From: Eledone cirrhosa
Taxonomy: Eukaryota
Reading direction: 5' to 3'
Assembly: GCA_964016885.1 (NCBI GenBank)
Contig: OZ024741.1
Coordinates: 121,024,001-121,088,000 of the forward strand
DNA length: 64,000 nucleotides
Position 1 is the first letter of the stretch. Each line of letters starts with the position of its first letter. Shown one piece after another: positions 9,728 to 63,665 of the stretch. Made by a program: the position numbers and the translations under genes. The notes beneath the pieces were generated by a model, which was not told the DNA's origin, did no database searches, and saw only the letters and a program-made list of their open reading frames with translations.

Positions 9728-10736
9728 GTAAGTATTTTGCTAAATATTTTTTAACCTTTTTGTTCCCTCGGTAAGCAAGATGTAGCTTAAAATTACGATG
9801 GACAGTTTTTAGAGAAATATAAGTTAAAATTTATTTAATAAAATTGTATTATATCAATAATAATGGTTTTTGATTTAGGCACCAGGCCAACAATTTTGTG
9901 AGAGAAGTTAATTAAGTCACCTCAGAGTGTTTCTTGTATTTTATTTTATTGACCTGCTAAGGATGAAAGGCATAGCTAACCTTGGTAGGATTTGAACTCA
10001 GATTGTAAAGGGACATAACTAGATGCCACAAAATATGCTGTCTGACACTCTAGCGTTATTGCCAATCCATCACCATTTTTATATCAATAATAATAGTTTC
10101 TGATTTAAGCACAAGGCCAACAATTAAATCGACATCAGTGCATTAATGGTACTTTATTTTATCAACCCTGTACGGAAGAAAGGTAAAGCTAATCTCAGCT
10201 GAATTTGAACTCAGAATGTAAAGGGGCATAACTCTGTGCTGCAAAGCATATCTGATGCCCAACTCATATTGATGAATAATATAATTTGAGAGGTTCTGTA
10301 TGTTAAAAATAATACAAAAAGTTAGTCTGTCCTTAGCCCTGAGGCTTATCAGGCTGAAGCTTATCCTAGTTTCATGAATCATTAAGTGATTGAGAATACA
10401 TGACTACCCCTGGATGGATGCTAGTGTGTTGTAGCGTTTATCCCCAGCTGATCCTGGAATCAAATCTTTGATGGGATGACTGTAAGACCAGACTCCCTAG
10501 GTTATGCACCTTTACAATGTCTAGTATAAAGCCCCTTTCAGTCATGATTGACCATGTGTGTGTACCTGGACAGTTGCTCTCCAAGGCATGAGGCCAGGTA
10601 AGGTGTTTTATAGAAGACCAGTAGTCATCTATACATACACATATCAGTCTCCATGTCACTGTTGTTGTCCAAGAGAAAGACAAAGGCCAATACAACTTGG
10701 CACTGGTGACATCACAAATCATATATATGTATATAA

Positions 10737-11995
10737 GTGTTATAGCACAACTAATCAGGGACAGAATCAAGTTAGATGAGATGCAGTTTGGATTTATGCC
10801 AGGTAGGGGTACTATTGATGTCCTCTTTGTGGTGAGACAACTACAGGAGAGGTATTTAGCTAAGAGTAAGCCACTGTATCTAGCATTTATAGATTTAGAG
10901 AAGGCCTTTGACAGGGTCCCATGCTCTATAATCTTGTGGACATTTAGGAAGTTATGTGGGGGTCCACCAGGGATCAATTCTCATCCACTCCTTTTTATTA
11001 TGGTACTTCAGGCCATCACTGAAGAGTTTAAAACTGGCACTCTATGGGAGCTCCTATATGCTGATGACCTAGTCCTCATAGCTGAATCCGTAGGAGAATT
11101 AGGGGCAAAATTTCAATCATAGAATAAGAACCTAGAGTTGAAAGGTCTAAAAGTCTTAATAAATAGAAAAGAAGACAAGAAGGTGATACCATCAGGAAAG
11201 TGACCTTGTTCAATATGTCGGAAAGGGGTGGGCAGAAATTCCATAAGGTGCACACAATGTAAATTATGGATGCACAAGAGATATAGTGGAATTGCAGGTA
11301 TGCTAACAGAAAAGATAGACTTTATATGTGGCTGATGCACAGTGGAAGTGAGCACAAAGAACACACATGAAATAGATTCCCTCAGCTGCCAGGGGAGCTC
11401 TCTAGAAGTTGTTGACAGCTTTTGATACCTAAGTGATCAAATTAGTAGTGGGGGAGGATGTACTGAAAGTGTTATAGGATAAGAACAGGTTGGAAGAAGT
11501 TTAGAGATTTATTACTGATGTTAACAACAAAATGCTTTTCTCTTAGAGTGAAAGGTAGACTGTATGATGCCTGTGTGCTAACTTAATGCTACATGGCAGT
11601 GAAACATGGGCCTTGACTGTGGAAGACGTGTGGAGTCTAGAGAGAAATGAGTTGAGTATGCTCCAATGGATGTGTAATGTTATTGTGCAGGAATGGCATA
11701 GTATAAGCACACAGAGAAAAACTTGGCCGAAGAGGAATTGGATGTAGTGTGCAAGAGAGAAGACTGCATTGGTATGGACATGTGATGTGCATGGAAGATA
11801 GCTGCTGCATAAATAAATGCAGAGAAACTCCAGTGGCTGGAACGTGTGGAAGAGGCAGGCCCAGGAAGACATGGGATGAGGTTACGAAGACTGACCTTAA
11901 AAAACTAAACCTCGCAACAGAAATAACTAAAGACCATAAGGGCTGGTGCTATGCAGTGCTGAAGAAGGCCCGACCTGCAGCATACAATGTGACCT
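10737..11995 (+). mobile_element. RTE-clade LINE fragment (reverse transcriptase, decayed)
   Basis: ORF QFGFMPGRGTIDVLF...FIDLEKAFDRVP...LLYADDLVLIAES, then RRLHWYGHVM...GRGRPRKTW; frameshifts and stops. Confidence 0.92.
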
Positions 11996-50192: not shown

Positions 50193-51145
50193 TTTACGTC
50201 CGCTTTTCCCTGCTTGCAAGGGTTGGACGGGACCTATTCAGCACAGCATCTCTCCGCTTGTCACAGTCTTTCGTCATCTGCTCGGTGAGTTTCAGCGATC
50301 TGAGGTCCATGTTTTACGTGGTCTACCTCTTCTGCGTCTTCCTTCTACTGGGATTTCTTGGCACTTCTTTACCCAGCGGTCATCCTCCATGCGCATCACA
50401 TGCCCACACCATCTCAGCCTTCTCTCTTGCACGCCACAACTTATCCCTCTTATACCCAGTTTCCTTCTCAACTCGTCCATGCTTGGTCGTTCACACACAT
50501 TGATATTGCACATCCAACGGAGCATACTTGCTTCATTTCTCTCCAGCCGTCGCATATCCTCTGCAGTTGCCGCCCATGTGTCACTACCATGCAGCATCGC
50601 GCATATCACACAGGCATCATATAACCGTCCTTTCGTATGCAGGGAGAAAGCCTTCTTTGTCAACAAAGGAAGCAGCTCCCTAAACTTCTTCTAACTCGTC
50701 CTTATTCTAGATACTATGGCCTCGGAACACCCCCCTCCCATGCTAATCTGATCACCTAGGTACCGGAAGCTATCAACCACTTCTATAGAACCCTCCTGCA
50801 TTGGAAAAATGTGTCTATCAATGCGATTAATACTGCCAACTTTCCCTGTACATCTACTGCATACGTAGTTTTCCCTACCTGTTAGTTTGCCTGTTATCCC
50901 ACTACATCTCTTGTGTACCCAAGATCTGCATTTCGTACATTTTATGGAATTTATGCCAGTTCCTTTCCTACAATATCGAACATGGCCATTTCCCTGATGA
51001 AATCGGAGTTTTGTCCTCTCTTCTACTTATCAACACTTTTGTCTTAGCTATGTTTACTCTCAGTCCTCTTGATTCCAACTGCCGTTTCCATAGCCAGAAT
51101 TTATTCTCTAGCTCCTCTACTGATTCTGCTATAAGAGCCAGATCA

Positions 51146-54650: not shown

Positions 54651-56863
54651 TGTGTGTGTGTACGGGTCTGTCCGTCTTTGTTGTTTTTCCAATTTTCTTT
54701 GTCCTGTGCGCCCCCCCCCCCCTATTTTGAATATATATATATAATTGTTTAGCCAAGGAGAGAAGGACAGAACCTCTGAGATGGTAGGAGAGAGAAAGCT
54801 GCCCTCAAATCATGTCTTGATTAAGGATACATATCGCCCGGTCTGGGAATCAAACTCGTCAACTCACGTGTCCGACAATCTAACTACTAGGCCACAGACC
54901 TTCACTTTTTTTTTTAAAATTAAAACTTGTTAAATATTGTTAAAATTTCCAAAATAATTGTCACTAACAAAAAAAAATATAAATTTAGTTTGTATCAGAT
55001 ATTTGATTAAAAAATTCAGCTTAAAATAAGGAAGGTAACTCTAAACTCTCTCGTCCTCTATACACACTTTGAAATATCAACGGTTATTAGTGACATTTTG
55101 TGATAGTCACATCGGATATTTATTTATTAATTACATATACACTACCGATTTTCTGGCAACTGAAATCCGGACATAATTATAAGTGGACACTTTTAAGGAC
55201 AGTCGTAATCGGCCATATATACATATATACTACTGGTTTTCCAGCAACATGGTTGCGTATCTCTTTTAATCCGGACATAATCATGAGTCGACACTTTAAT
55301 TTCCTGCAACAATTACTACTGACATTGGTTTTCGATATTGGAATAAGTGACCATTTTTATGTCGAATGAAGTGGGTGGTGGTAAGTTTTGACGAGTTTCT
55401 TGGCTTTGGAAAAACTTTAACTCTCAGTCAAAGCTAACTGTGGTTAAACTACAACAACAGCTCTTTCTCATCAACCGTAATGCTACCCCCACCCCCAAAC
55501 TATTCGAGGGTCGCAATATGATCGAATGGTTAAGAGGTTTGCTTTTCAATCATTAGGTTCCAGGTTCTATCCCACTGCGTGACATCTTGGGCAAGTGACA
55601 TTTACCATAGCTTTGGATCAACCCATGTCTTATGAATGAAGTTGGGTAGACAGAAACTGTTTGGAAGCCCCCCCCCCGATGGACTGTATCTGTAATTAGA
55701 AGGCCCAGCATTGTCAGACACTTTGTGACAATTTCTCCGAGAATTACATTAAAGATACACGTGTCTGTGGAATGCTCAGCCACTTACAATATAATGCTAG
55801 GTAGACTATACTTGTAATTTAAAAGGATAGTTTTGTTCCATATTGTGTCATGCTGAATCTCCCTGAGAATTACATTAAGCGTACACATGTTTGTGGAATG
55901 TCTAACCACTTTGTGTTAATTTCACGACTAGGCTGTGCCGCTGATCAACTAACTGGAATACTCATCGTCGAAATCGATGGTGGTACATCGATCGAAACCT
56001 TAATACAAACATTTCCTTTTCTGAACCGGCCCCTAAATGACATATAGTCTTTTATTATCAAGACTGGAGCTACTGGGAGAAATTTTCCTCTTTCGTGTTA
56101 CTGAATTTTTTAAAATACCAGGTAGAATCGCCACAAAGCGAGAGACCACAGCTCCGATACTACGGATATATGGTTAGAATGCCCCAAGAAAGAATCGCTG
56201 AACAGATTTTACGGGCGAGACCCATGAGTAGCCCAGGAGTAGCCCGCGAGTTAGATAGTTGGATAATATCCATGAGATGACCAGATTAGCAATAAATAAA
56301 AAGTTTGTTACCCAACTCCATTTCATTCCTTTGATGGAAAGGGGCTCCTATGCTCTTTCTCTGCTGAACTTGTCAAACATTGGAACTGGGTTTTTAATAT
56401 ATATGTGTACATGTAGTCCACGTAGTAAATGTGGTTGGCGTTAGGAAGGGCATGCAGCCATAGAATCCAAGCCAGAAACAGTTCTGTATGAGCAAAACAC
56501 GGTCACCTGATCTGGCATGTCTCATAACTCGTCTAACTCATGCTAGCGTGAAAAAAAATAGACGTTAAGGGATGATGATAACGATGATGGTGTAGTAATG
56601 ACAATACATATATTGTTGACATGAGCATTTATATCGAAGCAGACGAGTCATATATATATATATATGCTAATATATGAAATTAGATTGTTTCATATTTCTG
56701 AGTCTTTTATCACAAAACATTAATACATTTACATATATATATATATTCATGTGCACACATATACGCTACGCTTAAAACATGCGTGTGTACATAATCAGAA
56801 GTGGCAACATTCCAAGAACATATATATGTATGTGTATATATATATATATTTCTCAGGAGATAT

Positions 56864-57838
56864 TTAACCGTAGCTGAAGACCAAACAATCGTAGACTTCG
56901 GCCAAGGATTTCAGACAATTAAACAAAATGCTGATATCACGAGCTTCGCTTTCATTTTCTGCTAAATCTATAAGAAGGCAGCGTACAATACTGGAATCTT
57001 CTTCGGTACACCAGTTCAGCATGACGCAGTAGTTGGTATCGCCCTTTCGACCAAAGCGCTGCATTGTATTCTTTGAGAATGAGGCATGTTCCTCAAAGAT
57101 GTAACCATGCTTATGTAAATAGATGAATACTCGAAGAAAGCGTCTAAGAATGCGGAGAACTTGCTGTTTGGTCATGGTGCTTTTGTCTGCGTTGTTTTCT
57201 GTCAGGTAGCCGCAGTTCTGTAGTAAGAGGTCAACAAAATCTTGTACCGATGTGGCAGTATAGCTTGTTAGAACTCTATCGGTGACGAGCTTAAGAATGC
57301 GGCAGTCGAGCTGATGAGTAATCTCCCCGAAAAGTTTCTCTTTATCCGAGGCGTTTATTTGACCGTTCCACTTGATCATAGCGTTCAGACTGTCGGAAAG
57401 TATCAAAGCATTGACCCTCTCATCCTCATTTTCGGCCACATCACTGATGAGGAATTTTAAGTGGTCTGGGTCATGTCGAGCACAAATTCTAGCAATGGCG
57501 AAATAATGGTCTGAAGCTGGACGGCCATATTTTGAAACCATATGCCGTGAAAACGGTCCGTGGATATCTACGGAATATCCATAATTTTTCAGCAGAAACA
57601 GCACCTCCATTAGTCGGATGAAAACTCTGCGAATGATAGAGGAACCGAAATATTTACACATTTCATTGTTATCTAGGTAAAGTAACCGAAGGAGCCCCAT
57701 TACATCTGCGTACTGCTCCAGATCCCTATGTAACCCCGATATGGAATAAAAACATATCCTTTGGTCTAACTGGTAGGCGATCTCTCCAATAAGTGGGCGC
57801 CATTCTTCAAAGTAGGTTTCTGATGAATGCACCAGCAT
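56864..57838 (-). CDS. 324-aa protein with two tandem Speriolin C-terminal (SPATC1/SPATC1L-like) domains, uninterrupted ORF
   Basis: Long non-repetitive ORF with an internal repeat: LIGEIAYQLDQRI...GYSVDIHGPFSRHMVSKYG...LKFLISDV...ALILSDSL and LFGEITHQLDCRI...GYIFEEHASFSKNTMQRFG...VRCLLIDL...SILFNCLKSLAEVYDCLVFSYG. Both match the recalled Speriolin_C pattern GEIAFQLDRRI...GYxxxxHxxFSEFLINTYG...LLLNCLxxLS...LFAW. Splice acceptor cttttcgtttttcgttatag at 57910-57891. Confidence 0.85.
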   Translation of the reverse strand: MLVHSSETYFEEWRPLIGEIAYQLDQRICFYSISGLHRDLEQYADVMGLLRLLYLDNNEMCKYFGSSIIRRVFIRLMEVLFLLKNYGYSVDIHGPFSRHMVSKYGRPASDHYFAIARICARHDPDHLKFLISDVAENEDERVNALILSDSLNAMIKWNGQINASDKEKLFGEITHQLDCRILKLVTDRVLTSYTATSVQDFVDLLLQNCGYLTENNADKSTMTKQQVLRILRRFLRVFIYLHKHGYIFEEHASFSKNTMQRFGRKGDTNYCVMLNWCTEEDSSIVRCLLIDLAENESEARDISILFNCLKSLAEVYDCLVFSYG

Positions 57839-57948
57839 CGTAAGAGTTGGTTGTATGTGTTCGTAATCAACAGATGGTATGAAGAACAGCCTATAACGAA
57901 AAACGAAAAGTATGTCATCATCAATCTTATATAAATGAAAGTTCTTGA

Positions 57949-58250
57949 TTGTGTCCGCCTAAAACATGTGTACCCAAGATTTACATTGTGTACATCGTAT
58001 GGAGTATATGCCTACTCCCTTTCTACATATTGAGCAGGGCCACTTCCCAGAAGGAATCGGTCCTATCTTCTCTCCTACTCACTAGCACTTTAGTTTTGGC
58101 TAAGTTTACTCTTAGGCTTTTTAATTCTAAATTTTGTTTCCATAGTCGGAACTTCTTTTCTAGTCCTTTAATGGCTTCGGATATAAGGACCAGATCATCT
58201 GCATAGAGAAGTTCCCATGGGCATCCGGTCTTAAACTCCTCTGTTATAGC
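57949..58250 (-). mobile_element. RTE LINE RT fragment just 5' of the speriolin-like exon
   Basis: AITEEFKTGCPWELLYADDLVLISEA...VNLAKTKVL. Confidence 0.88.
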
Positions 58251-58269
58251 TACACACACACACACACAT

Positions 58270-58340
<71 letters not shown>

Positions 58341-58356
58341 TGTATGTATGTATGTA

Positions 58357-58429
<73 letters not shown>

Positions 58430-58449
58430 ACGTGCACGTGTTTATGTGG

Positions 58450-59330
58450 AATGTACAGGCAAGACGTGGTTCTCCTACTCGTCTAGTCTCAACTATGCTG
58501 ACATGGATTGAATGGGTTGTCACACTCCGGGACTTGACTAGTCAGGGAACCGCAAGCGAGAGAAGTCAAGCTCATGGATGTTATCCAACCATCTTGCTCA
58601 GGATCTACCCCGGGGTCTCCTGTCGGTTGGTTTTGCCCGTAAAATCTATCCACCGATTCTTTCCTCAGATATTCTAACCACATGCCCATAGTATCGGAGC
58701 TATGATCTCTCAATTCGGAGAACTAGTGGCTCTACCTGGAGTTACTCTCTGATCTCCGAGATACGCACTCTATTGAGTAACGTTACTCCAAAGACCCTTC
58801 GGAGGAACCCCATTTTGGCCGCTTGTATTCGCGATTGTATTCTTTCAGTCGTTACCCAAGATCCATGACCATAGGTAAGGGTTGGCATGAATATCGAGTT
58901 GAAAATAGCGAGTTTGGCTTTTACGTCTACCTCCCTTCTGATTACTGAATGCTGAAGCTGGCGCATTACTGCACCAGCTCCTGCAATCCTTGCATTTAAT
59001 TCAGCCTCCTGCCTTCTATTACCCGTGACAAGGCCCGAGATACTTGAACTTCTCTATCTGCTTCAGGAAAGAATTCCTTTTCTATTTAAGGCTTTTAACA
59101 TCTCGGTCCCGATTTCATCCTCCCTAGCAGCCTTGCCATATTCGAGCTCTTTAACTGTCCTTGTGACCTCAGCCTCTGAGAGATTAGTCACCGTTCCCAA
59201 ATGCACCTCGTGTAGATCAGAAGAAACTGATATGATCGGGTTTACAGATCAGCAAAATATTCTTTCCAGCTCGCGAGCATGCACCTCTCTTCAGAGAGGA
59301 GAACCCTAGACGCATTTTTGATAGCAGGTG
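58450..59330 (-). mobile_element. second RTE-type LINE family fragment
   Basis: KAKLAIFNSIFMPTLTYG...IQAAKMGFLRRV and WKEYFADL motifs; related + strand pieces at about 41570-41880 and 56120-56280. Confidence 0.8.
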
Positions 59331-62743: not shown

Positions 62744-63665
62744 TCATCATCATTTTACATCCGCTTTTCCCTGCTTGCAAGGGTGGAACGGTTCCTATTC
62801 ACCACTGCATATCTCCATTCGTCACGCTCCTTTGTCATCTCTCCTGTGTGCTTCAGTGATCTGAGGTCAGCTCCCACAACCTCCGCCCATGGTTTTCGAG
62901 GTCTTCCTCTACTGCGTCTTCCTTCCACTGGGATTTCTTGGCACTTCTTTACTCAGCGGTCCTCCTCCATGCGCATCACATGTCCATACCAACGCAGTCT
63001 TCTCTCCCGCACACTATAGCCTATCCCTCTAATACACAATTTCTCTCTCAACTCGTCTATGCTTGGTCGTTCCCGCACATTAACATTGCACATCCAACGG
63101 AGCATGCCTGTTTCATTTCTCACTACATCTCTTGTGTACCCAAGATCTGGATTGTGTACATTTTATAGTATTTATGCCAACTCCTTTTCTACATATCGAA
63201 CATGGCCATTTCCCTGATGGAATCAGAGTTTTGTTCTCTTTTTTACTTATAAACACTTTAGTCTTAGCTAGGTTCACTCTCAGTCCTCTTGATTCCAACT
63301 GCTGTTTCCATATCCAGAATTTATTCTCCAGCTCCTCTACTGATTCTGCTATGAGTACCAGATCATCAGCATAGAGAAGTTCCCATGGGCAGCCAGTCAT
63401 AAACTCCTCTGTTATGGCTTGGCGGACTATAATGAAGAAGAGCGGGCTGAGGACCGAACTCTGATGTACACCTACTTGTATCTGGAATTCCTCACTAAAC
63501 TCCATTCCTACTCTCACTTTACTGACAGCACGCCTGTACATAGCTAGCACTATCCTCACAAGCCATTCCTCTACACCTAGTTTCCTTAGGGACCACCAGA
63601 TGACAGATCGGGGTACTCTATCAAGGCCTTCTCTAGGTCAACAAAAGCTAAGTATAGTGGCTTAT
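62741..63665 (-). mobile_element. RTE LINE copy (same family as 50147-51148) with an internal deletion
   Basis: ORF GVHQSSVLSPLFF...LLYADDLVLIAES...KWPCSICRKGVG; junction near 63120 skips roughly 360 bp present in the 50.5-50.9 kb copy. Confidence 0.9.

Follow-up and report, generated by a model that had tools for sequence, protein, structure and literature searches.

The window, i.e., the whole 64,000-nucleotide stretch of Eledone cirrhosa DNA that was analyzed, sits on a 416-Mb contig of the 3.0-Gb assembly and was found to hold, on its minus strand, an intact gene for a protein of 324 amino acids that is built almost entirely of two Speriolin_C domains in tandem. Comparison of sequences indicates that this gene belongs to a family known from the sperm neck, of which it is a long-established coleoid form and not a young retrocopy. 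It further indicates that the two-domain build is common to octopuses, argonauts and cuttlefish, and that it is present in no other animal sampled, including those represented in the best 120 of 328 profile matches.

The open reading frame runs intact from ATG to TAA at 56864..57838 (-), i.e., over 975 bp including the stop, or 324 codons. The stop-to-stop frame in which it lies has 364 codons and reaches 57958, leaving 40 codons open upstream of the ATG, and no upstream in-frame ATG was found in those 40 codons. No other open frame in the 64 kb was as long, the runner-up having 225 codons, and a frame of 364 codons was attained in none of the 200 first-order Markov simulations of the window, in which the longest frame averaged 143 codons and never exceeded 238. 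Judged from the ORF call and from the cephalopod orthologues of 323-337 amino acids, with which the protein is colinear, the complete coding sequence at 56864..57838 (-) is contained in one exon, and the gene was rightly termed intronless in the initial annotation, at least as regards its coding part. The start ATG has an A at -3, and the proximal 5' flank, as read from the sequence, extends over 57839..57933 (-). It contains a pyrimidine tract that closes with TAG (57891-57910, minus strand), upstream of the ATG, and, farther out, the sequence TATATAA at 57927-57933 (-). The tract is a possible splice acceptor, in which case an exon would begin at 57890; it is to be noted that the end coordinate chosen by the initial annotation was this same position 57890, 52 bases upstream of the ATG, at the pyrimidine tract and its TAG. 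The 5' flank could possibly serve either as the acceptor for an upstream non-coding exon or as a proximal promoter.

The gene is borne by a single-copy island at 56861..57994 (no strand assigned), which was recovered as a 1171-base contig with a depth of 3.9-6.9 in each of three DNA runs, and the bins on either side of 56861-57994 had depths of 10^2 to 10^5 in the contigs of these three runs, all from one sample. The tandem Speriolin_C gene is, in short, a 1.1-kb unique island among retroelement debris. Five of the 150 longest open frames in the window matched Pfam at E<=1e-4, namely the Speriolin_C ORF, two RT fragments, a PHD-type zinc finger and a weak acidic match; besides the Speriolin_C ORF, only retroelement-type domains were seen among these 150 frames when neighboring host genes were sought. 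Taken together, the RT fragments and the very high k-mer depths indicate that the region is mostly retroelement debris. The description of an intact 975-bp ORF amid decayed repeats was thus borne out on both counts, by the ORF itself at 56864..57838 (-) and by the RT fragments and high-depth flanks that surround it.

Several features of these surroundings were recorded in their own right. An RVT_1 fragment with a YADD motif lies at 58026-58541 (-), directly upstream of the gene and on the same strand (E=2.6e-4), and is followed by a Cys-rich, zinc-finger-like stretch at ~57950-58040 (-). The 3' part of a retroelement that these two compose ends ~100 bases upstream of the start codon of the gene; it may lie within a 5' intron, or it may have displaced the promoter. 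Other RVT_1 fragments were located at 10625-11119 (+) and 63116-63637 (-), with E of about 5e-11. The open frame at 50694-51026 (-) gave the PHD-finger match (27.4 bits, against a cut-off of 24), and its Cys pattern resembles, by eye, that of the zinc-finger stretch at ~58000; the frame more probably belongs to a retroelement than to a host gene as one of its exons. When it was compared by BLASTP with the frame at 57769-58011 (-), which possibly does not contain the zinc-finger stretch, nothing was obtained. Microsatellites of the (TA)n and (CA)n types flank the unique island at 56560-56860 and 58240-58330, and both reads and contigs of the DNA runs break there. Farther upstream of the gene, by ~7.6 kb, and ~1.5 kb past the end of the window, is a 7.5-kb minisatellite (contig positions 121089461-121096922) with ~339 copies of a 22-base unit at 93% matches; all three forward frames run open through it. 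Within the 20 kb past the upstream end of the window, no open frame matched a Pfam domain.

Against the Pfam family Speriolin_C (PF15059), the whole protein matched in two stretches, with E=1.9e-20 and 73.7 bits. In a six-frame search of the genome, the two halves were scored separately, and the C half (56897-57331) reached 41.3 bits and the N half (57371-57793) 36.9 bits, both above the curated gathering score of 27 bits for this family. Domain borders were set with the help of a custom HMM of canonical domains, built from 13 single-domain relatives: the N-terminal Speriolin_C domain comprises residues 11-159 (57362..57808, minus strand; 81.3 bits with the custom HMM) and the C-terminal one residues 164-321 (56876..57349, minus strand; 83.0 bits). 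The 324-residue protein is, in essence, two domains joined by a link of four residues, with 10 residues ahead of the first. The C half stops 3 residues short of the end of the protein, in keeping with the C-terminal location of the domain in the family, and the N half is internal. When aligned to each other, the halves were 27% identical over 146 residues (E=2e-15). The first helix of each domain opens with a variant of the motif GEIxxQLDxRI, which is GEIAYQLDQRI at residues 18-28 in the N domain (57755..57787, minus strand) and GEITHQLDCRI at residues 171-181 in the C domain (57296..57328, minus strand), the two being 153 residues apart. This motif holds the most conserved columns of the Speriolin_C family; across 67 aligned family members, G171, E172 and L177 were invariant or nearly so.

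Conservation of the family features in the two halves is partial. Of the 40 columns in which 110 canonical domains show conservation of 85% or more, each half retains 20. Kept in both are the GEIAxQLxxRI helix, an R, the G-Y...H block, the Y/F-G pair and L-x-x-C-L, and lost from the cephalopod halves are the R-x-Y-G motif, an N, a D, the terminal W and most of the C-terminal F-x-W. A Pfam scan of the 324-residue protein gave no match to Speriolin_N (PF15058) at E<=1. These results agree with three elements of the initial annotation: the two diverged repeats of ~150 residues, each starting with GEIxxQLDxRI; the expectation of two Pfam Speriolin_C matches; and the lack of the N-terminal region, in whose place are just the 10 residues before the first domain.

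To place the protein in its family, 5.8 billion proteins were searched by word index. Four relatives of similar length were found, and all four of these representatives had two Pfam Speriolin_C stretches each. Identity to the Eledone protein was 80-81% in Octopus, 67% in Argonauta and 54-55% in a Sepia cluster and likewise in one ENA protein. The orthologues have 323-337 amino acids and are colinear with the Eledone protein from start to stop, over 98-100% of its length. Alignment of eight cephalopod proteins had no large gaps and contained 131 invariant columns; over six species, the N domain had 66 invariant positions and the C domain 61, i.e., the halves are about equally conserved. The annotated orthologues are LOC106869763 of O. 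bimaculoides (XP_014771114.1; UniProt A0A0L8HNR8, 'Speriolin C-terminal domain-containing protein'), LOC118765177 of O. sinensis with its counterpart CAI9727596.1 of O. vulgaris, GAB1603454.1 of Argonauta hians, and CAE1308711.1 of Acanthosepion (Sepia) pharaonis. In length and in having two Speriolin_C domains they match the Eledone gene, and no difference in build was seen. The public contigs of 1.4-1.9 kb that carry the Octopus and Sepia orthologues were considered as possible transcripts, but they do not count as evidence of transcription, since the DNA contigs of the Eledone locus are just as short.

All of these orthologues are annotated as hypothetical or uncharacterised, two of them under the name 'Speriolin C-terminal domain-containing protein' in UniProt, and public annotations already include the gene, under no name, for five cephalopods. 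In the searched literature, which comprised the main texts of papers, no mention was found of the orthologue accessions or locus names, of speriolin together with octopus, or of the terms Speriolin C-terminal, Speriolin_C, PF15059 and IPR029384. The opinion that the gene is not known from characterised proteins was, accordingly, upheld as far as this literature goes, but it needs the qualification that the gene stands annotated, though uncharacterised, in five cephalopods.

The restriction of the tandem build was examined in wider samples of the family. An exhaustive HMMER search of 1.84 billion cluster representatives returned 14 proteins at E<=0.001, one of which was the Octopus representative, and the other 13 (13/13) each had a single Speriolin_C domain, located C-terminally. 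A profile of ten canonical proteins gave 328 matches at E<=1e-5 among proteins 100-720 residues long, and the best 120 of these were taken. When domains were counted with the custom HMM in 148 proteins, including these best 120 of 328, 12 were found to have two domains and 136 to have one. All 12 members of the cephalopod cluster, the Eledone protein included, were two-domain proteins, as were none of the 136 others examined, and an internal, i.e., non-C-terminal, Speriolin_C domain was likewise seen in 0 of the 136. The suggestion of a doubled build restricted to one lineage was well founded in this sample, and on these counts the tandem build appears to be a coleoid-restricted variant of a known family and not a new kind of system.

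Speriolin is said, from the 2004 work of Goto and Eddy, to bind Cdc20. Both speriolin and SPATC1L are described as sperm neck proteins (PMC8471410; PMC12901780), the former being a centrosomal protein of spermatocytes and spermatids that is found at the sperm neck (PMC8471410; PMC6776547), and the latter being located in the spermatid neck, where the junction of head and tail depends on it (PMC8471410; PMC8788604; PMC12901780). Knockout of Spatc1l in mice is reported to part the head from the tail, yielding decapitated sperm (PMC8471410; PMC12901780), and biallelic SPATC1L variants have been reported in men with acephalic spermatozoa (PMC8471410; PMC8788604; PMC12901780; PMC6776547). SPATC1L is also reported to associate with the PKA regulatory subunit and CAPZB (PMC8471410; PMC12901780). 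Among bivalves, speriolin-like members are described as biased to the male gonad (PMC3958495; PMC12564202): a clam homologue differed 332-fold between male and female at the ripe gonad stage (PMC3958495), and a scallop homologue was reported as abundant in the male gonad (PMC12564202).

These relatives share the Pfam domain with the cephalopod gene but differ from it in build. The 'speriolin-like' proteins of other molluscs (Liolophura sinensis XP_064611872.1 and Pinctada imbricata KAK3085836.1, together with those of Haliotis, Lottia, Pecten and Lymnaea) have one C-terminal domain after a variable, often long N-terminal region, whereas the cephalopod gene has two domains; they keep the R-x-Y-G and C-terminal F-x-W motifs, both largely lost from the cephalopod halves, and are about 20-33% identical to either half. 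Vertebrate speriolin (SPATC1) has a single C-terminal Speriolin_C domain and a long N-terminal part with Speriolin_N. Vertebrate SPATC1L has Speriolin_C like the cephalopod gene, but as a single copy and with a Speriolin_N region, and it belongs to a separate vertebrate clade; by analogy, it is likely the functional analogue of the cephalopod protein. Speriolin_N is not a universal companion of the domain, and was also absent from many fish and invertebrate members in the Pfam annotation of the best 120 of 328 profile-search matches.

The age and origin of the gene were approached through two trees. The first was built from six cephalopod proteins, each split into its two halves (12 in all), plus 13 single domains, and in it the N halves formed one clade (100/99) and the C halves another (98/95). 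A larger tree of 56 rows, to which more invertebrate and vertebrate domains had been added, gave the same two clades, with values of 100/99 for the N halves and 99/94 for the C halves. Since the N halves of all species group together, and so do their C halves, the duplication would be older than the octopod-decapodiform split, which argues against a young retrocopy. In the first tree, the N and C halves and the protein P0006 made up a single clade (100/99), whose stem measured 1.59 changes per column, and the corresponding stem in the 56-row tree was 1.86; the tree program warns of long-branch effects. The 56-row tree placed the cephalopod clade inside a lophotrochozoan group that was split from the vertebrates at 100/99, and beside gastropod sequences with weak support (90/62). 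By these placements, the gene descends from within the speriolin-like proteins of molluscs and then went through a phase of rapid change. Orthology to SPATC1 or to SPATC1L individually was not found, the vertebrates forming a clade of their own (100/99) and the cephalopod halves falling in the lophotrochozoan clade, and the cephalopod gene is, by the tree, related to the ancestor that the two vertebrate genes have in common.

The protein P0006, which is 173 amino acids long and has a single domain, deserves separate mention. Its sole relative, P0149, is likewise a single-domain protein of 173 amino acids, and the two are the nearest single-domain relatives of the cephalopod halves, with 27-31% identity and membership in the same long-branch clade (100/99). 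They differ from the tandem gene in having one domain, and a search of the Eledone genome found no counterpart to them beyond the tandem gene. P0006 tends to group with the C halves (88/68 and 90/69), and the alternative in which the 12 halves form a group that excludes P0006 was not rejected (AU test, p=0.268).

Four whole-genome searches of the 3.0-Gb assembly, in which the queries were the 324-residue protein, PF15059, the single-domain relative P0006 and P0010, a speriolin-like protein of a chiton, all matched only the tandem Speriolin_C ORF. It is to be noted that such searches go exon by exon and score only the best candidates, and that a canonical gene divided among small exons might have been overlooked; within the reach of exon-wise searches, the tandem gene was found to be the sole Speriolin_C gene in the Eledone genome. 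The lineage-specific retro- or tandem-derived gene of the initial annotation is thus not a young or extra copy, being the sole Speriolin_C sequence found in these searches.

Structure prediction by AlphaFold2 was poor when based on the eight cephalopod sequences (pLDDT 60.9, pTM 0.44). With an alignment of 67 rows, the mean pLDDT was 90.1 and the pTM 0.85, the five models spanned pLDDT values of 87.7-90.1, and 243 of the 324 residues scored at least 90. The model is all-helical, with about seven helices in each half that occur in the same order in both. The columns invariant in the 67-row alignment were E172, L177, Y246, H251 and L309, from which it follows that the single-domain rows had aligned onto the C half. 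With two domains in the chain, a pTM of 0.85 points indirectly to a defined mutual arrangement of the halves, which are predicted to pack as a compact pseudo-dimer. A search of PDB sequences with the tandem protein gave no match at E<=10, Foldseek against the PDB gave none at E<=0.001 with either the first model or the 67-row model, VIA-align over 48,161 chains gave none at Z>=5, the best being Z 4.5, and the ESM Atlas contained no usable match to the tandem protein. Lack of a clear PDB relative does not in itself make the fold new.

About a dozen of the best 50 VIA-align rows were HEPN-type bundles (toxin HEPN, sacsin HEPN, Csm6, Cas13b and AbiF), with Z of 3.4-4.2, which is within the noise that the tool states for helical proteins. 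No HEPN family was matched at E<=1 in the Pfam scan of the tandem protein, and the HEPN motif R-x(4-6)-H was not seen, by eye, before the invariant His. HEPN domains typically act as dimers, and a remote link to them would fit the doubled build; coming from weak fold rows, it is offered as a lead only.

Considering all of the above, the account that we favor, at roughly even probability, is that this is an intact, single-copy, coleoid-wide gene in which two Speriolin_C domains have been fused, that it likely encodes the cephalopod version of the sperm centriole/neck family, and that its halves would form a pseudo-dimer. Since the genome searches found no second family member, and since the gene is nested among the mollusc speriolin-like proteins, it likely carries, by analogy, the sperm centriole/neck role. 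The internal duplication would have taken place once, in an already short, domain-only ancestor, before octopods and decapodiforms parted. The fused pair may stand in for two copies of the domain that would be brought together in other animals, and in vertebrates it is possibly the N-terminal coiled-coil region that pairs the domains. The cephalopod protein would then be a scaffold in spermatids, at the centriole or the head-tail junction, by analogy with mouse SPATC1L and speriolin. An extended form of this account, in which coleoids swapped the ordinary speriolin-like gene for a fused dimer and Speriolin_C is dimeric in all animals, including in human SPATC1L, with no solved relative of its fold, is tentative and, taken as a whole, rather unlikely.

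The main rival explanation retains the fold and changes the job: the protein may have a role outside sperm, e.g., at somatic centrosomes or cilia, or an altogether unrelated one. The long stem branch (1.59 and 1.86 changes per column in the two trees) would be natural under such a change, as would the disappearance of half of the conserved family columns from each half (20 of 40 kept), the loss of R-x-Y-G and that of the N-terminal region; moreover, the testis link of the cephalopod protein comes only through family analogy. Nonetheless, since the gene is the sole family member found in the genome, loss of the sperm role from it would leave none to carry that role, the family core (GEIAxQLxxRI, GY..H, Y/F-G and LxxCL) persists in both halves across the coleoid span, and the mollusc relatives are described as male-gonad biased (PMC3958495; PMC12564202). 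On balance, we consider a changed function doubtful, while according it a real share of probability. That the ORF is no working gene, but arose by chance, is a pseudogene in decay or was carried along by a mobile element, might be suspected from the repeats that lie on all sides of it, but this is contradicted by the simulations, in which 0 of 200 windows attained the frame length, by the single copy at unique depth, and by the intact full-length orthologues in at least five named cephalopods with their 131 invariant columns; the confident structure prediction also speaks against it, and we regard it as hardly credible.

An origin by retroposition is compatible with both the favored account and a change of function. 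Here, a spliced speriolin-like mRNA would have been retroposed and then doubled internally, and the intron-bearing parent later lost. The domain of vertebrate SPATC1L is split by introns, and the full coding sequence of the cephalopod gene is in one exon; retroelement remnants surround the gene, with an RT fragment directly upstream on the same strand, and the genome searches found no parent gene. Conversely, neither a remnant of a poly(A) tail nor a duplicated target site is seen beside the ORF, although such traces of retroposition would not be expected at an age that predates the octopod-decapodiform split, and the same facts are accounted for by intron loss or by a domain-only gene that was intronless ancestrally. 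We hold retroposition to be improbable, though considerably less so than a non-genic frame.

Returning to the favored account, its meaning lies with the family as much as with the cephalopods. Speriolin_C is the sole conserved module of a small family that is needed for the sperm head-tail junction, and loss of SPATC1L leads to headless sperm in mouse and man. For cephalopod genomics, the gene adds one more conserved, coleoid-specific rearrangement of domains, and for structural work the tandem protein of 324 amino acids is a compact, well-predicted construct for a first Speriolin_C structure. The finding leaves long-standing questions unopened, and its interest is mainly as a hint of paired action: the doubling of the domain in a short protein free of the N-terminal region, and apparently the sole member of its family in the genome, suggests that Speriolin_C acts in pairs.
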